A DNA stretch of 64,000 bases from sequence record MZ234025.1, one strand, 5' to 3'. Source of the DNA: Escherichia phage vB_EcoM-172859UKE1. Shown one piece after another: positions 11,114 to 59,346 of the stretch. Below the pieces are notes generated by a model. It saw nothing but the letters and a program-made list of their open reading frames with translations, searched no databases and was not told where the DNA came from. The position numbers and the translations under genes were made by a program. The first letter of the stretch is position 1; every line of letters begins with the position of its first letter.

Positions 11114-11138
11114 TGTTACCTTTTTGCCTATGGTTTTT

Positions 11139-11168
11139 GGCCCTTCCAAAAAGGTCGGGCCTTTTTTT
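11139..11168 (+). terminator. rho-independent terminator (GGCCCTTCC-AAAAA-GGTCGGGCC + T7)
   Basis: Stem-loop plus T-run; member of a recurring terminator family. Confidence 0.55.
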
Positions 11169-13672: not shown

Positions 13673-15090
13673 ATGGCTTTTACAGTTGATATAACTCCTA
13701 AAACACCTACTGGAGTTATAGATCAGACTCAGCAGTTTACTGCTACACCCAGTGGTCAAACTGGAGATGGACCTATTACATATGCTTGGACTGTAGATGA
13801 TGTTCCACAAGATGGAGCTGAAGCAACTTTTAGTTATGTACTAAAAGGACCTGCCGGTCAAAAGACTATTAAAGTAGTTGCAACAAACCCAGTCCTAGAC
13901 GCTGAAGCTGAAACAGCAGAAGCTACTACAACTATCACAGTTCAAAATAAGACACAAACGACCACCTTAGCTGTAACTCCTAATAGCCCTGACGCTGGAG
14001 TAATTGGAACAGCTATTGAATTTACTGCTACTTTAGCTTCGCAGCCATCGGGCGCAAACGCTACTTATCAATGGTATGTAGATGATTCTCCTGTGGGCGA
14101 AGCAACTAACGCTACGTTCAATTACACTCCTGCCGAAAGCGGGGTAAAAAGAATTAAGTGTGTGGCTCAAGTAACTGCGACAGATTATGATGCACTAAGC
14201 GTTACTTCTAATGAAGTATCACTGACTGTTAATAAAAAGACACAGACAACTACTTTGGCAGTAACTCCCGATAGTCCTTCAGCTGGAGTAATTGGAACCC
14301 CAGTTCAATTTACTGCTGCCTTAGCTTCTCAACCAGTTGGAGCGTCTGCTACGTATCAGTGGTATGTAGATGATTCACAAGTTGGTGGAGAAACTAACTC
14401 TACATTTAGCTATACTCCAACTACAAGTGGAGTTAAAAAATTAAATGCGTAGCCCAAGTAACCGCGGCAGATTATGATGCAAAGGAAGTTACTTCTAATG
14501 AAGTATCATTAACGGTTAATAAGAAGACAATGAATCCACAGGTTACATTGACTCCTCCTTCTATTAACGTTCAGCAAGATGCTTCAGCTACATTTACCGC
14601 TAATGTCACTGATGCTCCAGAAGAAGCGCAAATTGCGTATTCATGGAAGAAAGATTCTTCTCCTGTAGAAGGATCAACTAATGTATATACCGTTGATACC
14701 TCATCTATTGGAAGTCAAACTATTGAAGTTACTGCAACTGTTACTGCTACTGATTATGATAGCAAAACTATTACAGCAGAAGGTCAAGTTCAGGTAACTG
14801 ATAAAGTTGCTCCAGAACCAGAAGGTGAATTACCTTATGTTCATCCTCTTCCACATCGTACTTCAGCTTACATCTGGTGCGGTTGGTGGGTTATGGATGA
14901 AATCCAAAAAATGACTGAAGAAGGTAAAGATTGGAAAACTGAAGATCCAGATAGTAAATACTACCTGCATCGTTACACTCTTCAGAAGATGATGAAAGAC
15001 TACCCAGAAGTTGATGTTCAAGAATCACGTAATGGATACATCATCCATAAAACTGCTTTGGAAACTGGTATCATCTATACATATCCATAA
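13673..15090 (+). CDS. hoc: Hoc-like capsid decoration protein, Ig-like repeats, frame interrupted in A6 run (ORFs 13673..14452 and 14530..15090)
   Basis: N-terminal Ig-like repeats and C-terminal ...YLHRYTLQKMMKDYPEVDVQESRNGYIIHKTALETGIIYTYP recognised as Hoc; one-base frame difference at 14435-14440. Confidence 0.8.
13947..14517 (+). repeat. tandem duplication of an Ig-like domain coding unit inside hoc (13947..14230 and 14231..14517)
   Basis: Two consecutive about 285-nt units encoding NK(K)TQTTTLAVTP...ATYQWYVDDS...SNEVSLTV. Confidence 0.8.
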
Positions 15091-16782: not shown

Positions 16783-18063
16783 TTAGTCTATAATAATTTT
16801 AGGCAATTTAACACCGAGTAAAACAGACAAGTCTGAACGTCCTGCCATTTTATCCATGTCCCCACCATCAATTATTCTCGCTTCTTTTTCGTCTTTTGCT
16901 ACTGTGTAAGGATTTGCTGATAAAGCATATCTAACCAATAATCCGATAGACGGTTGCAAGCTTTCTGGATCAACTACAACTTTAAAAGCACCGACATGTT
17001 CCGGGTCATCTAAATCTACTCCTTCAGTGTATGGAGCATAAAAGATTGACCCTACAATTTCTTTTTCGCCGATATTTTCTACAACACCCACAACAACATA
17101 ATCTAACGGGCTGTTGGTATCGCAGTAAAGAGGTAATCCATTTGCCAAGAATCCATAAGCATTTTGTGAAAGATACTTGTCATCTTCTGGCTTATGTTTT
17201 AACCAACCAGAAGCAGCAAGAATAGCAGCTGCACGAGCTGAGGCTACACAAAACGTTGCAGTATAAGTTGTCTCTTTTTGAATGTGTGATACCATTTCAC
17301 ACACCATTCGATATAATGAACGACCTGCTTCTGGAGCGGATGCATAACTCAAGTCAATAAATCCGGTGTCAGTAATTCCAGTAACTTTATAACGTTTCGA
17401 TACAGTAATTAAAGACTGAAGAATATCTTTATTAATTTCATCAGCCATTTCAGTAGCAAGCAAATCTTCTAAGAAGTTAGGGGCATCAAATCCATTAGCT
17501 TCCAAATCTTGCGCTAATTCAACCGTGAGGCCAGTTTTAAGTTTACGAGATTTGACTGAAGTTTGCCATTTATTAATCTGGAATCTTGCATCAGAAATTT
17601 CGCTACCAGAGCTTTCAAATTTGCTTGTTACCGCTGCATCTGAAAATAACCGTACCTTTAAATGAACGATTGCAATCTGAAGAGCTAATTCTAGATCACT
17701 TTCTTGAATATCTGCAAATGGTGCATCTTCTAACACTTTATAGACGATATTATTATATTTGAAAAAATCGCCTTTATTTAGTGTGACTTTTGATTCTTCT
17801 GTGAGTTCGGTAATTTTTTCTCGGTCTACATATCCAGCTTCACCCGCATAAGTAGCACCAGTTTTAAATGTGAATTCGTTATCCGGGTTAAGATATTTGA
17901 TACCATAAAAAGCAGCAACAGGTTGATTAGTTCTTTGTGTTGCTACAATGTCAGAATATATTAATTTAGTCGTAGCGCGAGTCAAAGCAACGAGATTTGG
18001 GCGACCAATTGAGTTGCTAGTAGACGTTGTAGATTCACGCAATAATTTTTGGATTTTACTCAT
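16783..18063 (-). CDS. 24: head vertex protein gp24
   Basis: 426 aa (T4 427); paralogous to gp23 region; synteny. Confidence 0.85.
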   Translation of the reverse strand: MSKIQKLLRESTTSTSNSIGRPNLVALTRATTKLIYSDIVATQRTNQPVAAFYGIKYLNPDNEFTFKTGATYAGEAGYVDREKITELTEESKVTLNKGDFFKYNNIVYKVLEDAPFADIQESDLELALQIAIVHLKVRLFSDAAVTSKFESSGSEISDARFQINKWQTSVKSRKLKTGLTVELAQDLEANGFDAPNFLEDLLATEMADEINKDILQSLITVSKRYKVTGITDTGFIDLSYASAPEAGRSLYRMVCEMVSHIQKETTYTATFCVASARAAAILAASGWLKHKPEDDKYLSQNAYGFLANGLPLYCDTNSPLDYVVVGVVENIGEKEIVGSIFYAPYTEGVDLDDPEHVGAFKVVVDPESLQPSIGLLVRYALSANPYTVAKDEKEARIIDGGDMDKMAGRSDLSVLLGVKLPKIIID

Positions 18064-18090
18064 TGCATTTTTTCCTTATGTGATATAGAT

Positions 18091-18098
18091 TATTTATA
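18091..18098 (-). promoter_or_regulatory. late promoter TATAAATA (minus strand) for gene 24
   Basis: TATTTATA on plus strand 28 nt upstream of gp24 start. Confidence 0.65.
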
Positions 18099-18104
18099 AA
18101 GATT

Positions 18105-18134
18105 GTTTACAACGTATTTGGTATGTGATACTAT
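18105..18134 (+). promoter_or_regulatory. T4-type early promoter cassette
   Basis: GTTTAC 18105-18110, TACTAT 18129-18134; 3' part identical to cassette at 54439..54480. Confidence 0.6.
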
Positions 18135-18170
18135 AGACTTATCAACTACAGAGGAGTAAACAAAATGACT
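18129..18170 (+). repeat. dispersed promoter/5'UTR cassette, copy 1 (ACTATAGACTTATCAACTACAGAGGAGTAAACAAAATGACT)
   Basis: Identical about 41 nt found again at 54439..54480. Confidence 0.8.
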
Positions 18171-18434
18171 AAAGCACGTTTCTTACGAGATACTTTAAAA
18201 GTTCTGGAAGCTGAAGCAGTTAAGTTAGTAGAAAAATATGGTGCAAAAGTTAATGGTAATGCCTTCAACAAAGTATGGATGAAAGTTGATTCTGAAGCTC
18301 GAGCTAAAGGTTATTGGGCCACTGATAAACTTGCATCATTCAAAAACAAAGACGGTTCTCCAGCATATGTCCAAGAAGGTATGCCTAATTGGCAAAATAT
18401 TTTGAAAACTTACATCGAAATTGCACAGAAATAA
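18165..18434 (+). CDS. hypothetical early protein (89 aa) in the 24/23 intergenic position
   Basis: ATG with GAGGAG RBS downstream of the early promoter; occupies the slot where T4 has segD. Confidence 0.55.
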   Translation: MTKARFLRDTLKVLEAEAVKLVEKYGAKVNGNAFNKVWMKVDSEARAKGYWATDKLASFKNKDGSPAYVQEGMPNWQNILKTYIEIAQK

Positions 18435-18444
18435 AACCAAAAAT

Positions 18445-18462
18445 GGGAGACCGAAGTCTCCC
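18445..18462 (-). terminator. terminator hairpin (GGGAGAC-CGAA-GTCTCCC) downstream of gene 23
   Basis: Perfect stem; U-run follows on minus strand. Confidence 0.6.
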
Positions 18463-18486
18463 AAAATAAGATTTAATCAATTAAGA

Positions 18487-20055
18487 TTAGATGCCTTTTA
18501 CATATACACGTCTAAAGTAAGCGTTCTTACCAAGGCTGTTCAGGATAGACGGCATACCGGACTGGATGCGAGCACCTGGAGCCTGCAGGGAACTTTCAGC
18601 AAACGGGTTAACACCGATACCGTAACGAGTTTTAAAGCCCATTACCGGCTGGAAGTTCTTAGGATCGGAACCACGCAGTGGGGTAAGTGCAACGTAAGGA
18701 GCATAGTAAATACCTGCATCCATTTCGTTAGCGCCTTTGTAACCAACGGTGAAGTAATCCTGTTTAGCATACTGGTCGATGTATACGCGGTATTTACCGC
18801 CAAGTACACCGGCAAATACAGACTTAGTAGTGTCGGTATTAAAACCAGAAGCCAGACCCTGTGCAGCGTAAGAAATACCAGTATCAACTGAAGCCAGTAC
18901 GTTAACTACGTTACGGGAAGCGATAATGAAGTTACCTTCACCACGACCGGTTTGACGAGCAATTTCAACTGCTTCTTTATCAATCTGGAACAACAGAGCT
19001 TTAAAGCTTTCACCGGCCCAACGAGCACCACGGATATCAATCGGGTCCTGGAAGTCGAATACACCAGCTTTAGAACCAACGATATTAGTCATACCAGATT
19101 TACCAACCTGAGCGGAGTAGTTAATCCAGTCAACAACTTCACGGTTGATTTCCAGCATAATTTCAGTAGCAAGAATACCACTCAGTTCAGCATCAGCATC
19201 CATACCGTGTACTGCACGGAGGTCTTGTGCCAATTCGATGGAGTAAGCTGCTTTCAGCTGACGAGATTTAGCTTCAATAACTTGTTTGTCGATACGGAAG
19301 CCCATTTCGTTCCACGGGTTGTCGGTAGAACCATTGAAGCCTTCCTGAAGTTCAGCGATAGAAGTAGCCATACCTTCAGCGATTTCTACCAGTACACCTG
19401 CTTCCATTTGTTTGATAATTTCTGCATCCAGCAATTCTGGGGTAGAAGCCTCAGCGCTAATGGTAACAACTTTAGTGGCCTGAAGATAAGTAGAACCAGT
19501 TTCAGCGAAGAAGTGATAATAAATGTCGCCGGCTACAGTGGACATACCAGCGGTAACAGGAGCAAATGCTTTTGCAGCACCCTGACCAGAGAACATCGCA
19601 TCTGGAGCATACATCGGATGGAAAGCTTCTTTAGCGTCAGCAGCGATAGGGTCTTTACCATATACTGCACGGAGAGCAAATACCTGACCGGTAGGGCTGT
19701 TCATAGGCTGAACACCACAAATATCAAAAGCGATCAGATTAGGAATAGCACGACGAACCATACCCATAACTGCCGGCCCAATTTGGGTTACTGCACCAGA
19801 GGTTTGACCTGCTGCGATGTTCTGAGCATTATAACCGTGGTCACCACCAATTTCAGCTTCGGTCAAGAAAGAACCAAATGCCTGAGCGATTTTCTCGTCT
19901 TTATATTCAGGGGATACTTCGAAATCTTTTTCCTGGTTTTCGAAGATTTTAGCGATAATAGCCTGCTTGCTATTAGCGATTTCCGGCAGGCCTTCACCTT
20001 CCAGCAGTTCTTTCCATTTGTCTACGAGCTGAGCTTTAGTTTTGATAGTAGTCAT
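18487..20055 (-). CDS. 23: major capsid protein gp23
   Basis: 522 aa; near-identical to recalled T4 gp23 along whole length (MT[TI]KTKA...RRVYVKGI). Confidence 0.95.
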   Translation of the reverse strand: MTTIKTKAQLVDKWKELLEGEGLPEIANSKQAIIAKIFENQEKDFEVSPEYKDEKIAQAFGSFLTEAEIGGDHGYNAQNIAAGQTSGAVTQIGPAVMGMVRRAIPNLIAFDICGVQPMNSPTGQVFALRAVYGKDPIAADAKEAFHPMYAPDAMFSGQGAAKAFAPVTAGMSTVAGDIYYHFFAETGSTYLQATKVVTISAEASTPELLDAEIIKQMEAGVLVEIAEGMATSIAELQEGFNGSTDNPWNEMGFRIDKQVIEAKSRQLKAAYSIELAQDLRAVHGMDADAELSGILATEIMLEINREVVDWINYSAQVGKSGMTNIVGSKAGVFDFQDPIDIRGARWAGESFKALLFQIDKEAVEIARQTGRGEGNFIIASRNVVNVLASVDTGISYAAQGLASGFNTDTTKSVFAGVLGGKYRVYIDQYAKQDYFTVGYKGANEMDAGIYYAPYVALTPLRGSDPKNFQPVMGFKTRYGIGVNPFAESSLQAPGARIQSGMPSILNSLGKNAYFRRVYVKGI

Positions 20056-37812: not shown

Positions 37813-37820
37813 TATTTATA
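37813..37820 (-). promoter_or_regulatory. late promoter TATAAATA (minus strand) for gene 9
   Basis: TATTTATA on plus strand between gp8 terminator and gp9 start. Confidence 0.7.
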
Positions 37821-37821
37821 G

Positions 37822-37849
37822 ATACAAAAATGGGAGCCCGAAGGCTCCC
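37822..37849 (-). terminator. terminator after gene 8 (GGGAGCC-TTCG-GGCTCCC + AUUUUUG)
   Basis: Perfect 7-bp stem, UUCG loop, U-run on minus strand. Confidence 0.6.
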
Positions 37850-37852
37850 TAA

Positions 37853-38857
37853 TTAAAACATAAACAAAATGTTAATTTCTTCTGTTTGGTCCATTGCCAT
37901 AATAACAGGTGGTCGGTTTTCCATATAAATCATTTCACCAGAATGACGCTGCAGGTCTCTAGGGTCGTAATAATCCTTTTCTGCTTTAACATTAGGGTCA
38001 TTTGGATTTTTCTTAGCTTCTAACGGGTTTGCGATAATTGATATCTGTCTAAAACCCTTGTTACCAGGCAAAGCTGCCTCAGGGAAATAAACCGAATCAA
38101 AATATGCTTTAAACCGCATCGTATTGGCTTTAACACGGTAAATCAAGCCATAGTCGTCTTGTTGCCAAGTTAAGTTATTTTCGTATCCCCAACGCGTAGG
38201 GTCTTCTTTAATTTCTTCCGGCCATGGAACTACAAGATATTCGTTAGTGCAACGGTTAATTGACACATCGGCAGGAATCTCATAAAGATATTCCCAAATA
38301 TATCCATCACCGGTTTCGATAACCCCATTAGCATCGCCTCTGCCTTCAGGAGGAGACATAGAACGAACAGACGGGGTCCATTTACCACCCAATTTAAGAC
38401 ATTCATCTTTATTATCTAAAGATTCTATTGAACAGAGCCCTACGTCAGGGACATCTAAACAACGGTAAATTAACCAACCGGCTCCAACTTCTGTCGCGTT
38501 GTACGGAGCAGTATTACATGCGACTATATCGTTAATTCTAAACGTGTAAGGGTCTGGATATCGCACATCTCCCCAATCACGCCTAGGAATAACAGAATCT
38601 AACATTGAAGGTAAAACTTTAACGGTACCCATCATATGGGTCCACATATCAGTAACACCAAGAACAGAATCTGTAGGATAAGGTGGGGCGAAGCCCACCT
38701 CATTTTCATTTGACGCCCAAGGCTCTGAACGCCCAAATGTAATATAAATGGAGTTCTTATCGTCTCCATCCCCAACTGAATTGTAAAAATTCAGCATTTT
38801 CTCTGTTCTAAATTTTGATGTAACTATTGCACGATAGATAACACTTGAATCATTCAT
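37853..38857 (-). CDS. 8: baseplate wedge protein gp8
   Basis: 334 aa as in T4. Confidence 0.85.
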   Translation of the reverse strand: MNDSSVIYRAIVTSKFRTEKMLNFYNSVGDGDDKNSIYITFGRSEPWASNENEVGFAPPYPTDSVLGVTDMWTHMMGTVKVLPSMLDSVIPRRDWGDVRYPDPYTFRINDIVACNTAPYNATEVGAGWLIYRCLDVPDVGLCSIESLDNKDECLKLGGKWTPSVRSMSPPEGRGDANGVIETGDGYIWEYLYEIPADVSINRCTNEYLVVPWPEEIKEDPTRWGYENNLTWQQDDYGLIYRVKANTMRFKAYFDSVYFPEAALPGNKGFRQISIIANPLEAKKNPNDPNVKAEKDYYDPRDLQRHSGEMIYMENRPPVIMAMDQTEEINILFMF

Positions 38858-41800
38858 CTAATTTAACCTGTGGTGGATTCACGGGGTCTCTTGGATTTCC
38901 TACATTATCGATTAACCGCTGTTCAACCAAATCTCTAAATCTAGAGAATGTTGTTCCGGACGCATCAAATAATGGGCTCATCAGTTTACGTCGTTCCGAT
39001 GGAAGTTGACCTTGAAATATGGAGTTATTGTTTTCAGCGTTATAATCTTCAGGTAATGGATAATCTTGACCAGCCATAGGGCCTATTTCATATATCGCTT
39101 TACCTGTAATAGGGTCAAACTCAACATTTCCTTGTGGGTCTAATTTAGCCACTCGGTCTGCATATTTAGTCGGTAATCCAGAATCCCACTTATAGTTTTT
39201 GTATTTATTAATAATGGTTTCAACATGTTTAAGTGTTAATCCGGTGTTAATAAACATTGTGAGAAGGGTAATTGCGATAAATCCAAATCCAACCGGATGA
39301 ACAAAACGTAATACGTCTGATTTCCAACGAGATGATGGAAGTTTAGATTTAATCTTCATTACGTAGTATGCTCTACCACGATTTATGTAATCGATGTTGT
39401 TCTGAGAAAGCTCTTTACCTTTAATACCACGAACAATTTCACCTTCAAAACCAGGGAGTCTTTCAGCTTTAACTTCCTGTCCTTGGATTAAACGACCTAA
39501 GAGGTTGTGAATTGTTACAGCCCATTGTAATTTACCTTTAGAGTAACTTCTCTCGATATACGTCACATTACAACGTCCTGTAGCGGTGTATATGGTTTGT
39601 CCGACCAAATCTTCTGTCAACGAATCAGATTCAATGATGATATCATATTCAGTCCCGGAACTAGATTCAATTTCAATTTCAACATCTTCGTTATAAAGCA
39701 CTTTAAACAAGAATTTATATGATGCTTCAGTTCCTTTAGTTGAATAGAAGTCATAACTTCTTGATTCAAAGAAACGAGACACTAAATCGCGTTTTTCGGC
39801 GTTTAAGTAAATGTTTCGTTTATAAATCTCAGACCATAAGTATTCCCACGCATGTTCTTCGCGCGGATATTGATTTTTAATAAGATTTAAAAGGTTGTTA
39901 TAATGAGTCCCATAACCGTCAGAAAGATACCGAATATAAGCCTCGCAGAATGCTTCGAAGTTTGTATTATCTAAAAGATAAGACTCTGGCATCATTGTAG
40001 TGAGCAATGGTCGTAAATCTGGGTCCGCAATACCATTCTCTTCCACAGGAGTCCATGTGGTATCTTTTTCTTGGTTTTGTAACGATGCTGTTAAGAATAT
40101 ATTAGTAGGCTTCCAAATTATAGAAACATTATCTCTAACACGATAACTAAAATCATAATAAGAAATAATCTCACCTGATGCTTTATAGAAAATCATGCCA
40201 GATGCATATTTTTTAAATCCGGTGAAATCTACGTTAGGCATAACTATTGTACAGTCACCGTCCTTCCAATATTCATGAACTTCACGGTCTGAAGAACTAA
40301 GTGGATGATTCTCAATAACCTTAGTGTAAAGTAAATCAGAATAAATTACAACGGCCTTGTCTGAGTTATTAATCCAACAACGAGTACCAGACTTTCTAGA
40401 ATAACTAAAGAATGGCTCAGCATAGTATTCCATTGGTTGAGGAGTGAACGATTCCCATTGAGAGTCTTCAGTTGAAATAAATGCCATCATATGATAATGT
40501 TTATCAGCCAACCATTCGCGAGGATACTCATATTTAACAGCACCGATTAAACCGTACTTGACTTGTGTTTTTGGGTCATCAACAATATCCGATTCTAGAA
40601 ATTTAAAATTACTAGATGAAATAGATAACTCAACACCATCAGTAGACATACTGGTGTACCCAGGTTCAATACGACGGCGTTCTTCTTCAGTATTACCAAA
40701 CACACGTTTAAATGTGCCAGCATCATGGTCTAGAACGTAAATACCCTTATCAACAGAATCAACAATAGGAGTAGTCCTCGGGTCATCGTTAAGATTAACA
40801 ACTTCACCGATAATCAGTGCAAATATTTTACCACCGACAGAATCCATTTTATAGCAAACTGCCTTAGGGTTACCTGTGATGTTAAATGTTTCTTGTTCAA
40901 ACAAACGTTCGGAATACGTCGGAGATAACGGGTCTGAATCAATAGGGGCATTACTAGTTTTAATAAAACGAACTTTATCTCGAGCAGCAACGTATACATA
41001 ATCGTCATTGCAAACGATAGCTTCTGCAATACGTGACACGTTAGCAGGTAATGATGCGTAGTTACCAAATATTTCTACATCAAATCCTAAATTTAACTGG
41101 TCACCAATTTTAGCAAATGTTATATCTTGAGAACTAAATCTCACATCATCAGCAGACCAACGAACGTCAGTTGATTTACGCCCGTAAAATAATTTATCAT
41201 ACCCAAGAACATACGTGGTATAATCTGTCTGGTAATACACTGTTCTTGATACAGGGTACCCTACACGGTCATTAAACAATTTAACCGATTTCCAGGTTTG
41301 TCCCTTATCATTAGAGACTTTAACCACAGGCTGATACCGTTCAAACAAATAAAGAATTCCTTCGGATTCCATCAAATAAACACGGTTTATATCATGACAC
41401 ACCTGTTGAATCGAACCTTGAATTTCATGATACTCATTTTCGCCAATAATGAAATTTTTAATAGATGAAATATCCGCATAAGCAGGGCTAAATTGGAACG
41501 ATTCATTCATTAGAGCTGCCATTATAGTGTCGTTATTAAAATCGACATAAGCCATGTTGTTATTTGTAAATTTTTCTCTAATAAAAGTGTTAGCCAATTG
41601 CATTTCAATCATATGTTGAAATGTATACGCGTTAGTCTGAAATGATTCAAATATTTCGGTGTATACCCAATCAGATCTCTCGAAGCCTTCGGCTGCAGTT
41701 GATACACGAATAATATAAGAAGTTAATGGGTCTAAGCTACTTTCGAACCAGTTGCTATTAGGAGTATATCCTAAATTTATCCATCTGTAGCTGGCAGGGG

Positions 41801-50627: not shown

Positions 50628-50915
50628 ATGAAAACTTATCAAGAGTTTATATCACCTATTGCTAACGTTTCTACTCTGACCGAAGCAACCCTTACTTCCG
50701 AAGTTATTAAAGCAAATAAAGGACGTGAGGGTAAACCAATGATTAGTCTGGCTGACGGCGAAGAAGTAAAAGGTACTGTTTACTTAGGGGATGGATGGTC
50801 TGCTAAGAAAGACGGCGCTACTATTGTTATCTCTCCGGCTGAAGAGACCGCACTGTTTAAAGCTAAGCATATTTCTGTAGCTCAGCTTAAAATTATTGCA
50901 AAAACTCTTCTGTAA
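50628..50915 (+). CDS. internal-protein-like protein with capsid targeting sequence (MKTYQEFISP..)
   Basis: 95 aa; N-terminal MKTYQEF matches the T4 IPI/IPII/IPIII capsid targeting sequence; occupies the ipI position next to 57B. Confidence 0.6.
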   Translation: MKTYQEFISPIANVSTLTEATLTSEVIKANKGREGKPMISLADGEEVKGTVYLGDGWSAKKDGATIVISPAEETALFKAKHISVAQLKIIAKTLL

Positions 50916-50918
50916 GTA

Positions 50919-50948
50919 GTTTACACGCTGATAGGACTATGTTATAGT
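50919..50948 (+). promoter_or_regulatory. T4-type early promoter cassette with inverted repeat (GGACTA/TAGTCC)
   Basis: GTTTAC 50919-50924, TATAGT 50943-50948. Confidence 0.6.
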
Positions 50949-50952
50949 AGTC

Positions 50953-50988
50953 CTATCAAAACAAATGAGTAAATGGAGAAATAAAATG
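50953..50988 (+). repeat. conserved 5'UTR cassette copy (CTATCAAAACAAATGAGTAAATGGAGAAATAAAATG)
   Basis: Nearly identical to 59056..59092. Confidence 0.7.
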
Positions 50989-52421: not shown

Positions 52422-52496
52422 GGCCCTGTAGCTCAATGGGAGAGCTGTCAGCTCATAACTGATAGGTAGCTGGATCGAAACCAGCCAGGGTCACCA
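52422..52496 (+). tRNA. tRNA, anticodon CAU (Met, or Ile if C34 is modified), CCA encoded
   Basis: Manual cloverleaf: acceptor GGCCCTG/CAGGGTC, D-stem GCTC/GAGC, anticodon loop CTCATAA, T-stem GCTGG/CCAGC, 75 nt. Confidence 0.8.
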
Positions 52497-52499
52497 ATC

Positions 52500-52576
<77 letters not shown>

Positions 52577-53200: not shown

Positions 53201-53250
53201 CAAACACTTGCCTTAGCAGGTGGAACCCCGACAAGGTTGCCGCAAGGCTT

Positions 53251-53278
53251 AGCCCCTTCCGAAAGGTCGGGGCTTTTT
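53251..53278 (+). terminator. rho-independent terminator (AGCCCCTTCC-GAAA-GGTCGGGGCT + T5)
   Basis: Stem with GNRA loop plus T-run; same family as 11139 and 53795. Confidence 0.6.
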
Positions 53279-53323: not shown

Positions 53324-53788
53324 ATGAAATCATACGCTGAATTTTTGACTGAACAATCTAGTTCAGATGTAAAAGCCGCTGCGATTGCAGCAATTCAAGC
53401 AGGTAAATATTCTTACAAAGACGCCTCTGATGAAGAACGTTTCCGTTTTATTAGAGATTTTAAAGCCGAAGGTTTTACTAATGCTAATACTGTTAGCCGA
53501 GTTTTTAAAAGCCTAGCTGCATCAGGTGAATTGTTCCAGAAAGCTACAGGTAAAGCACCTGCGCCAAAAACAGACCCTAAAGCAGCTCAAGAAAAAAATA
53601 TCGCCAAAGGAATTATTTCTAAGTATGAAGCAATTCTTAAAGAGCTTTTAGTAATCAAAACAGAAGGCCAGAAACTGGCACGAGCACATAGCTTCAAAGA
53701 TAATCCTCACGCTCATAGCCTTGAGTATGTTGAAGATATCCAAAAACTTATTAAAGACCGTATCTGGTCTGCTAAACAAATTAAATAA
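53324..53788 (+). CDS. internal-protein-like protein with CTS-like N-terminus (MKSYAEFLTEQ..)
   Basis: 154 aa; N-terminus resembles the capsid targeting sequence with an L-x-E site. Confidence 0.5.
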   Translation: MKSYAEFLTEQSSSDVKAAAIAAIQAGKYSYKDASDEERFRFIRDFKAEGFTNANTVSRVFKSLAASGELFQKATGKAPAPKTDPKAAQEKNIAKGIISKYEAILKELLVIKTEGQKLARAHSFKDNPHAHSLEYVEDIQKLIKDRIWSAKQIK

Positions 53789-53794
53789 TAGAAT

Positions 53795-53823
53795 GCCCCT
53801 TCCTTATGGTTGGGGCCTTTTGG
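53795..53823 (+). terminator. rho-independent terminator (GCCCCTTCC..GGTTGGGGC + TTTTGG)
   Basis: Hairpin plus T-run after the 53324 gene. Confidence 0.55.
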
Positions 53824-53854: not shown

Positions 53855-53883
53855 GTTTACTTCTTCTAAGGACATGATACTAT
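53855..53883 (+). promoter_or_regulatory. T4-type early promoter cassette
   Basis: GTTTAC 53855-53860, TACTAT 53878-53883 (17-nt spacer). Confidence 0.6.
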
Positions 53884-53911: not shown

Positions 53912-54415
53912 ATGAGTCTTTACACTGAACTGAATAAAAAATCTGAAGAATCTGCTGAAACTATTTTTAAAAACGTGCAAAAGCGTATTTTGGAAAAGAT
54001 GTATGATGCAGCATCTAAAGGTGAAAAATCTTGCCGGTTTCCGATGAGGTGTTCTTCTGATTTATGCGCAAATACTATTGAATGGCTGGAAAGTGAAGGT
54101 CTTACGGTAGAGAAAAACCCGGCGACTTCTATTGACGGCGAATCATATATTAGTATTTCTTGGGATAAATCAAGGGTAGAAGAGAAAGATGGTGATTGGG
54201 TTGTAGATGTTAAAACTTCTGATGGTGGACGTTCTGTTGAAGTTTCGGCTGTAGTTAAAGGTACCCACGAACAAAGGACTTGGGGTTGGGGTGGTGAAGA
54301 AAAAGAAATTGTTCTTAGTGTGATTGCCAGGTCAACTAGTAATAAAATTGCACAAAGCATCATTGACGCTGCAATTGCTGAAGCAGAAAAAATTTGCAAA
54401 ATTAAAAATAAATGA
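53912..54415 (+). CDS. hypothetical protein (167 aa)
   Basis: ATG with GAGGAAAA SD. Confidence 0.5.
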   Translation: MSLYTELNKKSEESAETIFKNVQKRILEKMYDAASKGEKSCRFPMRCSSDLCANTIEWLESEGLTVEKNPATSIDGESYISISWDKSRVEEKDGDWVVDVKTSDGGRSVEVSAVVKGTHEQRTWGWGGEEKEIVLSVIARSTSNKIAQSIIDAAIAEAEKICKIKNK

Positions 54416-54444
54416 TGTACAAACGCCAAGGATGGTGGTACTAT
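54416..54444 (+). promoter_or_regulatory. early promoter cassette (variant -35 TGTACA)
   Basis: TGTACA 54416-54421, TACTAT 54439-54444. Confidence 0.45.
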
Positions 54445-54480
54445 AGACTTATCAACTACAGAGGAGTAAACAAAATGACT
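54439..54480 (+). repeat. dispersed promoter/5'UTR cassette, copy 2
   Basis: Identical to 18129..18170. Confidence 0.8.
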
Positions 54481-54639
54481 ACTTTAATTATTTGGTTCGA
54501 TGAAAATGAAGAAACATACTGTGTGAATATTGGTGAAAGTCCAATGCCTGAATTTGAATCCTCGGATAAAAACTCTGTTGTATCTTGGGCTGAAGGTTAT
54601 AAAGCAGCTAAAGGTGACGTTGAAATAATTTACATCTAA
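54475..54639 (+). CDS. hypothetical small protein (54 aa)
   Basis: ATG 54475 with GAGGAG SD; track ORF 54412..54639 starts inside the promoter. Confidence 0.45.
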   Translation: MTTLIIWFDENEETYCVNIGESPMPEFESSDKNSVVSWAEGYKAAKGDVEIIYI

Positions 54640-54658
54640 GTAAGTTTATGTTATAGTA
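54628..54658 (+). promoter_or_regulatory. truncated early promoter cassette (ATTTAC ... TATAGT + TAGTCC arm)
   Basis: Contains the 3' half of the GGACTA/TAGTCC cassette only. Confidence 0.4.
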
Positions 54659-54685
54659 GTCCTATCAAATCAAGAGGAAAACAAA

Positions 54686-54913
54686 ATGGCTAAAGTTAGT
54701 ATTGATGTCGTTGATTATGAATACACAGAAGAAGTTATTCGCAACCGCCACCCTGAAGTTCGTATCGATTCAGTCCAAGATTCCAAGTTCTGGACAACTG
54801 AGCTTAATCTGAGTGGTCCTTATGAAGCTGTTAAGAAGTTCATGGTTGAAGAATACTGCGAAGGCATGCACCCCGAAGACGCCAAGTTTTATGTCAATTT
54901 GATTAAAAAATAA
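54686..54913 (+). CDS. hypothetical small protein (75 aa)
   Basis: ATG with GAGGAAAA SD. Confidence 0.5.
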   Translation: MAKVSIDVVDYEYTEEVIRNRHPEVRIDSVQDSKFWTTELNLSGPYEAVKKFMVEEYCEGMHPEDAKFYVNLIKK

Positions 54914-57726: not shown

Positions 57727-57756
57727 GTTTACAATAAGATAGGACTATGTTATAGT
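57727..57756 (+). promoter_or_regulatory. T4-type early promoter cassette with GGACTA/TAGTCC inverted repeat
   Basis: GTTTAC 57727-57732, TATAGT 57751-57756. Confidence 0.6.
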
Positions 57757-57784
57757 AGTCCTATCAAATTAAATGGAGTCCGCA

Positions 57785-59021: not shown

Positions 59022-59051
59022 GTTTACAAGGTCTGTAGTTGTTGATACTAT
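59022..59051 (+). promoter_or_regulatory. T4-type early promoter cassette
   Basis: AAAACAGTTTACA, TACTAT 59046-59051. Confidence 0.6.
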
Positions 59052-59055
59052 AGAC

Positions 59056-59092
59056 CTATCAAAACAAATGAGTGAATGGAGATATAAAAATG
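59056..59092 (+). repeat. conserved 5'UTR cassette copy (CTATCAAAACAAATGAGTGAATGGAGATATAAAAATG)
   Basis: Nearly identical to 50953..50988. Confidence 0.7.
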
Positions 59093-59290: not shown

Positions 59291-59320
59291 GTGTACAAAC
59301 TGATAGGGCTATGTTATAGT
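59291..59320 (+). promoter_or_regulatory. early promoter cassette (variant -35 GTGTAC) with inverted repeat
   Basis: GTGTAC 59291-59296, TATAGT 59315-59320. Confidence 0.5.
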
Positions 59321-59346
59321 AGTCCTATCAACTTGAGGAGAATATT

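Follow-up and report, generated by a model that had tools for sequence, protein, structure and literature searches.

The closest described relatives of the element analyzed here are the promoter-early stem-loop (PeSL) cassettes of T4-type phages (Arbiol 2010, PMC2839356; Comeau 2014, PMC4122927). The early promoter consensus in the PeSLs of PST and T4 is TTTACW-N17-TAYWAT (Arbiol 2010, PMC2839356; Comeau 2014, PMC4122927), and the junctions of PeSL mini-circles map between the -10 box and the ATG (Arbiol 2010, PMC2839356). In T4, the joints of deletions, amplifications and swaps lie at homologies of 2-10 bp, or somewhat more (Srikant 2022, PMC9391042, and work cited there). For RB69 the early promoters Pe:109605, Pe:72567 and Pe:72354 (frd.3) and the late promoter Pl:109573 are among the elements already predicted (Nolan 2006, PMC1524935, additional file 3). 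In T4 the slot between capsid genes 24 and 23 is occupied by segD, for which a review of T4 mobile elements (2010) noted that bioinformatic searches had found no specific promoter.

A preliminary description of a 64-kb stretch of phage DNA (the window, i.e. the whole stretch analyzed) had reported an identical promoter/leader cassette at two loci 36 kb apart. The window belongs to a Mosigvirus, that is an RB69/JS09-like T-even phage; its capsid region is 96-97% identical to those of phages such as vB_EcoM-ZQ3, phi25-307 and PhAPEC2, and the second locus has up to 99.6% identity to phage moha. The presence of the cassette at both loci was borne out. The two copies appear to be T-even early promoter/translation-initiation region (TIR) cassettes which behave like PeSLs and are not canonical PeSLs, and their common leader most probably goes back to an old ectopic transfer between two resident early promoters.

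Extent and anatomy of the repeat

The exact direct repeat is 43 nt long, TACTATAGACTTATCAACTACAGAGGAGTAAACAAAATGACTA, and lies at 18129-18171 and 54439-54481, on the + strand in both cases. The coordinates had been given correctly for the repeat; the 41-mer quoted with them begins one base later and is found at exactly two sites in the window (18130-18170 and 54440-54480, + strand), each flanked by one identical base on either side, which brings the exact identity to 43 nt. In 100 dinucleotide-preserving shuffles the 41-mer had no match at three or fewer mismatches. No other exact direct repeat in the window is as long. Just one other exact repeat of at least 25 nt was detected there, a pair of early promoter cassettes of the ATAGGACTATGTTATAGTAGTCCTATCAAA type sharing ~31 nt at 50932-50962 and 57740-57770. 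The window also contains tandem repeats of ~288 nt (13937-14529, 73-82% identity), which lie in a Hoc-like head decoration gene and correspond to Ig-like domain repeats.

Copy 1 is situated between genes 24 and 23, on the strand opposite to both. Copy 2 is situated in the e/tRNA early region, which matches T4 e.8-e.6, and adjoins tRNA genes and internal-protein genes. The features of the two loci are listed below.

16783-18063, - strand: gene 24 (capsid vertex protein), left border of the slot
18091-18098, - strand: late promoter of gene 24, TATAAATA, back to back with the early -35 (sequence read directly; RB69 Pl:109573)
18106-18134, + strand: predicted early promoter of the slot ORF, with -35 TTTACA (18106-18111), 17-nt spacer, TG (18126-18127) and -10 TACTAT (18129-18134), from consensus and conservation
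18129-18171, + strand: repeat copy 1 (-10 box, start region, 5'UTR, SD, ATG, codon 2 and one further base), exact match
18151-18156, + strand: SD GAGGAG, containing GGAG, 8 nt before the ATG at 18165; crossover point in LF82-33 (from sequence)
18165-18434, + strand: 89-aa ORF (PHROG 6003; RB69 ORF188c/189c family), antisense to the late genes
18444-18463, no strand assigned: 8-bp GC-rich hairpin, intrinsic terminator for gene 23, with a U-run on the - strand and none on the + strand
18487-20055, - strand: gene 23 (major capsid protein), right border of the slot
54416-54444, + strand: predicted early promoter of the 54-aa ORF, with -35 TGTACA, 17-nt spacer and -10 TACTAT; orthologous to RB69 Pe:72567 and to the PST ORF130 promoter
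54439-54481, + strand: repeat copy 2, exact match, offset from copy 1 by 36,310 nt
54475-54639, + strand: 54-aa ORF (PHROG 5461; RB69 ORF145c / PST ORF130)
54629-54688, + strand: next early cassette, with TTTACA, 17-nt spacer, TATAGT, SD and ATG at 54686, driving the frd.3 homologue (54686-54913)

GC-rich terminator hairpins similar to that of gene 23 are reused at several gene ends in the window (18431-18480 / 37818-37867 and 11137-11166 / 53249-53278 / 53793-53822). About 2 kb upstream of copy 2 two adjacent tRNA genes are present at 52422-52573, tRNA-Met and tRNA-Arg by synteny with RB69 and JK45; an Rfam search of the window returned these two tRNAs only, with nothing at either copy of the repeat. 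Starts resembling the capsid-targeting sequence of internal proteins were seen at 50628, 62792, 62972 and 63312 (MKTYQEF-like) and at 53324 (MKSYAEF). Such starts indicate that these small genes may be a group coding for internal head proteins, in which every gene has an early cassette of its own.

Judged from its sequence, the 43-nt repeat would comprise the downstream half of a T-even sigma70-type early promoter together with a complete translation-initiation region: the -10 hexamer TACTAT, the initial transcribed bases, a ~24-nt 5'UTR, the SD GAGGAG, the ATG and codon 2. The designation as a promoter/leader cassette was therefore apt, the full module being of the T-even early type (TTTACA or TGTACA, 17-nt spacer, TG-extended TACTAT, SD GAGGAG, ATG). 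At both copies the -35, the 17-nt spacer, the -10, the orientation, the spacing of the SD and the conservation in relatives are those of T-even early promoters, and A/T-rich UP-like regions could be read directly upstream of the -35, ATTATTTATAAAGATT at 18089-18104 and AAAATTAAAAATAAATGA at 54398-54415. A scan with a simple promoter consensus gave no enrichment over shuffles in either region. The start site of the slot promoter is predicted near 18141, and the early timing of both promoters is deduced from the consensus. The RB69 promoters Pe:109605 and Pe:72567 are orthologous to the window promoters at the slot and 54-aa ORF loci, respectively; RB69 differs in that its slot copy has three SNPs and its slot ORF is frameshifted in the reference. 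The passages searched of the text and supplement of Nolan 2006 (PMC1524935) did not remark that the two leaders are nearly identical.

The two ORFs behind the repeat are indeed unrelated, encoding proteins of 89 and 54 aa without detectable similarity, and both begin with ATG ACT (Met-Thr), as had been described. According to their sequence, both promoters would be fired by host sigma70 RNA polymerase immediately after infection, and the two proteins would be translated from the same open, strong ribosome-binding site. No significant RNA structure was predicted in the leaders (z = 0.17 and 0.67). The leader also bears some resemblance to sites for RegB: GGAGTAAACAA has GGAG and is unstructured, and 4/7 of the following positions fit GG*AGRAYARAA, a partial match to the strong-site consensus. 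With GGAG and an A-rich leader both mRNAs could be RegB targets, at that partial match.

A search of GenBank phages found the 41-mer in 135 records at 197 places, with a maximum of two per record. The slot version with its own flanks was present in 120 records and the early-locus version with its own flanks in many, and both copies, each with its own flanks, were found together in ~62 independent Mosigvirus assemblies, while JS09-like phages also have both. That the repeat is an artefact of assembly, produced by duplicated or collapsed reads, had been named as the condition that would overturn the description; these assemblies, the unique flanks of both copies and the RB69 reference rule it out and leave it a negligible probability.

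The 24/23 slot and the 54-aa gene locus

The 24/23 intergenic region was compared across T4-like phages. A small ORF is present there in Mosigvirus, Dhakavirus and Gaprivervirus, segD in T4, and the region is empty in T2. tblastn with the 89-aa ORF returned ~120 near-identical copies and ~119 distant ones at 31-38% identity, and every homologue examined is located between 24 and 23 in the antisense orientation. Slot homologues with 31-71% identity include those of Gaprivervirus VR20 and Dhakavirus WG01, other Mosigvirus alleles and three metagenomic phages, the last with alleles at 71, 70 and 61% identity. IMG/VR scans gave three contigs with the start of the ORF and one with the leader core, all in the known context. 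The proteins of the slot family align with conserved motifs, and the family is therefore real. A large protein search with the 89-aa protein yielded eight relatives without names or domains; Pfam gave nothing above threshold and only a sub-threshold match to DUF4859, and an AlphaFold model (pLDDT 68) had no PDB fold match at E <= 0.001. Neither PHROG 6003 nor PHROG 5461 has a known function, and the 54-aa protein likewise had no above-threshold Pfam match.

Eight diverged slot alleles, T4 included, have retained the -35, the -10, the TG and a spacing of exactly 17 nt, and differ in spacer sequence and leader. As the same slot and the same promoter are combined with differing leaders across genera, the gene and its promoter are old residents of the slot, and only ~20-25 nt of leader are specially common to the slot ORF and the 54-aa gene. 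This bears on the origin of the shared cassette. The preliminary description had taken it as the footprint of a cassette-mediated insertion, for example of a PeSL mini-circle, which carried the early 89-aa gene into the late capsid cluster. Some data speak for such an event: the T2 slot is empty (LC348380.1, 2001-2085; 83 bp with only the late promoter of gene 24 and the terminator hairpin of gene 23), so that early promoter and ORF are an insertion relative to T2, and cassettes do mediate gain and loss of an ORF at the 54-aa locus and a swap of ORFs in the slot (see below). However, at least three genera and metagenomic relatives have the ORF family and the orthologous early promoter at this syntenic position, with leaders that are all different, and in the empty T2 slot there is no resident early promoter with which to recombine. 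We consider insertion unlikely, and this part of the earlier interpretation was not upheld.

The placement of the 18165 ORF at the position of T4 segD proved correct as far as T4 is concerned, since both genes occupy the same intergenic slot on the same strand, antisense to the capsid genes. The T4 locus differs in that it contains the gene of a GIY-YIG endonuclease and no small ORF. Directly upstream of T4 segD, at a position orthologous to the slot promoter, we found TTTACA-N17-TATTAT with an upstream TG (10/12 matches; 882->854 on the - strand of the 106400-109000 segment of NC_000866.4). The 89-aa gene is nevertheless not a substitute for segD: in the relatives with a second Mosigvirus slot allele (JK45, ATK47 and LF82-33) segD follows downstream of the small ORF in the same orientation. 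The slot ORF of these three phages is a Dhakavirus-like allele with 31% identity to that of the window, in genomes that are otherwise ~96% identical; the slot allele plus segD are located at 1501-2494 in LF82-33, 39892-40821 in JK45 and 1534-2622 in ATK47. This suggests that segD, a homing endonuclease gene, and the slot allele may have been transferred together. On its left side the exchanged tract ends at different points, at the SD in LF82-33 and at the start of gene 24 in JK45. JK45 and the window differ throughout the intergenic region and become homologous again inside gene 24 and at the terminator. Such a pattern indicates ordinary exchange through the flanking genes and counts against insertion of the ORF by way of its cassette, as the differences of the JK45 allele end in genes 24 and 23.

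Compared with the intact 89-aa gene, the slot ORF of the RB69 reference (NC_004928.1, 43292-43532) contains one +1 and one -1 frameshift, and for this reason it was annotated as ORF188c and ORF189c. These frameshifts and the three SNPs in the leader reflect either degeneration of the laboratory strain or mistakes in an old sequence.

The 54-aa ORF takes the place of T4 e.7 and is present or absent among Mosigviruses. Comparison of the window and PST versions revealed 12 synonymous and two non-synonymous codon differences; it is therefore a real gene under purifying selection. The Tequatroviruses PST, EP01 and GEP001 have the same gene behind a homologous -35/spacer/-10 and TATCAA, with a different leader.

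Cassettes as crossover points

Three chimeric junctions were located inside cassettes, in LF82-33, in ZQ3/AV117 and in ATK47. Two of them concern the loss or gain of the 54-aa ORF, in which the 54439 cassette had the 54629-54688 cassette as its partner (ZQ3, AV117, ATK47). In ZQ3 and AV117, which are without the 54-aa ORF, a single cassette, ...TACTATAGAC(C/T)TATCAACTACAGAGGAG-AAACAAAATGGCT, directly drives the frd.3 homologue; the crossover between the 54439 and 54652 cassettes is at GAGGAG/AAACAAAATG. ATK47 is also without the ORF, and its junction is farther upstream, at CTATCAA; the event in ATK47 is separate from that in ZQ3/AV117. The third junction is in the slot: the promoter and leader of LF82-33 are 100% identical to the window through GAGGAG (18100-18156) and are followed by the other ORF allele and segD. 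An equally good reading of this junction is that a SegD-driven co-conversion tract ended there, which requires no special property of the cassette. All three junctions fall in the zone between the -10 and the ATG. As read from the aligned genomes, the comparison shows cassettes of this early-promoter family to be real crossover points in this lineage. Recombination at the level of cassettes, as the preliminary description had assumed, thus does occur, the slot included, but the cassette shared by the two loci is not the trace of an ORF insertion.

The likeness to PeSLs is considerable. An AT-rich upstream region, a sigma70-like early promoter, an SD and an ATG recur together as a module, of which at least 14 copies with shared subtypes are found on the + strand of the window, nearly all in early regions. 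The cassettes flank small variable ORFs, whose gain or loss between close relatives leaves a single chimeric cassette, and the junctions of the indels and replacements (ZQ3/AV117, ATK47, LF82-33) are inside the cassette. The ORF130/e.7 position itself differs between PST and T4, and the 54439 copy is located in the hyperplastic region, where adjoining ORFs are variable among close relatives. On the other hand, neither copy has the stem-loop that defines PeSLs upstream of the promoter, as an inverted-repeat search found nothing at or upstream of either copy, and the 18129 copy lies antisense inside the conserved capsid block, not in a hyperplastic region, although the slot itself is polymorphic. 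Several other early promoters of the window (57733-57770, 59296-59335, ~50925-50962 and 59031-59059) contain inverted repeats of 10-16 nt, e.g. GATAGGACTA..TAGTCCTATC, with the arms in the spacer and the start region and the -10 box in the loop; such repeats are absent from both copies of the 43-mer. They enclose the -10, whereas the published PeSL stem-loop is upstream of the promoter.

The junctions at GAGGAG, AAACAAAATG and CTATCAA also fit the pattern of short-homology recombination (Srikant 2022, PMC9391042). Compared with that process in T4, the homologies here are functional promoter/TIR motifs, so the downstream gene stays expressed.

Origin of the shared leader

To see how unusual the repeat pair is, the 14 cassettes were aligned at the -10 box and at the ATG and all 91 pairs were compared, with the following identities.

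-10 to +24 segment: family mean 58%; best other pairs, several at 92%; repeat pair 100%
TIR, -22 to +6 around the ATG: family mean 48% (sd 11%); best other pair 75%; repeat pair 100% (28/28 positions)
-35 and spacer: family mean 50%; best other pair 73%; repeat pair outside the six most similar pairs

The exceptional part of the repeat pair is the translation-initiation part only. Base by base, the -35/spacer of the two copies is ~50% identical. The repeat begins with ~18 nt, TACTATAGACTTATCAAC, that are in essence the family consensus and are shared at 92% with the cassettes at 53878 and 59046, and all early leaders in the window are A-rich with GGAG-type SDs; both facts would be expected if the two loci had arrived at an optimal -10 and ribosome-binding site by convergent or parallel selection, with no DNA passing between them. 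Against this stand the 28/28 identity of the TIR, where the next best pair reaches 75%, the other alleles of both genes, which work with different leaders, and the abrupt end of the identity on both sides (after ATGACTA on the right). A shared tract so short and sharply bounded points to DNA transfer, not to convergence, which we regard as very unlikely.

The two leaders might also be kept identical, either by ongoing gene conversion or through a leader-specific regulator (RegB, RegA or another RNA-binding protein) acting on proteins that need co-regulation. In favor of this, the 41-mer is unchanged in most of the ~197 copies although the surrounding genomes differ by ~4%, and GGAG followed by an A-rich tract resembles RegB sites. 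Nevertheless, each SNP is confined to one locus: in RB69 the copy before ORF145c is the exact 41-mer and the slot copy has three SNPs, HX01 has an exact slot copy and one SNP in the early copy (GAGGAG -> GTGGAG), and no SNP common to both loci was seen in the genomes inspected for concerted evolution. The two copies therefore evolve independently after the founding event, which would predate the radiation of the sampled Mosigviruses. Moreover, many phages have only one of the two genes or cassettes, the slot ORF of LF82-33 is a different allele behind half of the leader, and only four of the seven positions after GGAG agree with the RegB consensus. Active maintenance of the identity is accordingly quite improbable in our view.

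A further proposal goes beyond the leader itself. The proteins of PHROG 6003 (slot) and PHROG 5461 (e region) would be a co-regulated pair, with the shared leader recognized by a phage factor. In addition, the slot promoter is antisense and its strand has no U-run terminator; early transcripts from it could therefore run into gene 23 in antisense, which would help to time capsid gene expression. We regard this combination as highly doubtful.

Under the preferred explanation, in which the leader passed ectopically from one resident early promoter to another long ago, each locus would have had its own early promoter before the event. In an ancestor of Mosigvirus, ectopic recombination or gene conversion would then have given one locus the leader of the other. 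The left bound of the transferred tract may be the family-wide -10/TATCAA motif and the right bound ATGACT, perhaps already present in both genes; after the transfer each copy would have been conserved independently. Efficient homologous recombination in T4 reportedly requires ~50 bp, a figure attributed to Singer et al. 1982, and 43 nt is short for that. The 19-nt core of the leader scores 8.0 both against the leader of Tequatrovirus ORF130 and against that of the 71% slot allele, and 8.5 against an unrelated leader from the window, so neither candidate source aligns better. Transfer from the 54-aa gene to the slot was at one point argued from codon 2 (MNK in most slot alleles, MTK here). This was dropped, as the 71% allele, which has another leader, also starts ATGACTAAA; ATGACT may thus have been present in both genes beforehand.

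The repeat pair is real but ordinary, one more example of the known early promoter cassettes at which T-even phages recombine, and it reveals no new kind of element or mechanism. For the RB69 group, no previous account in which these cassettes serve as recombination joints is known to us. It provides a clean, well-bounded example of how T4-like phages shuffle small accessory genes at early promoter/ribosome-binding cassettes, and such a cassette works even inside the most conserved block of capsid genes, where a small early gene, antisense between 24 and 23, has been kept in several genera and exchanged together with segD.
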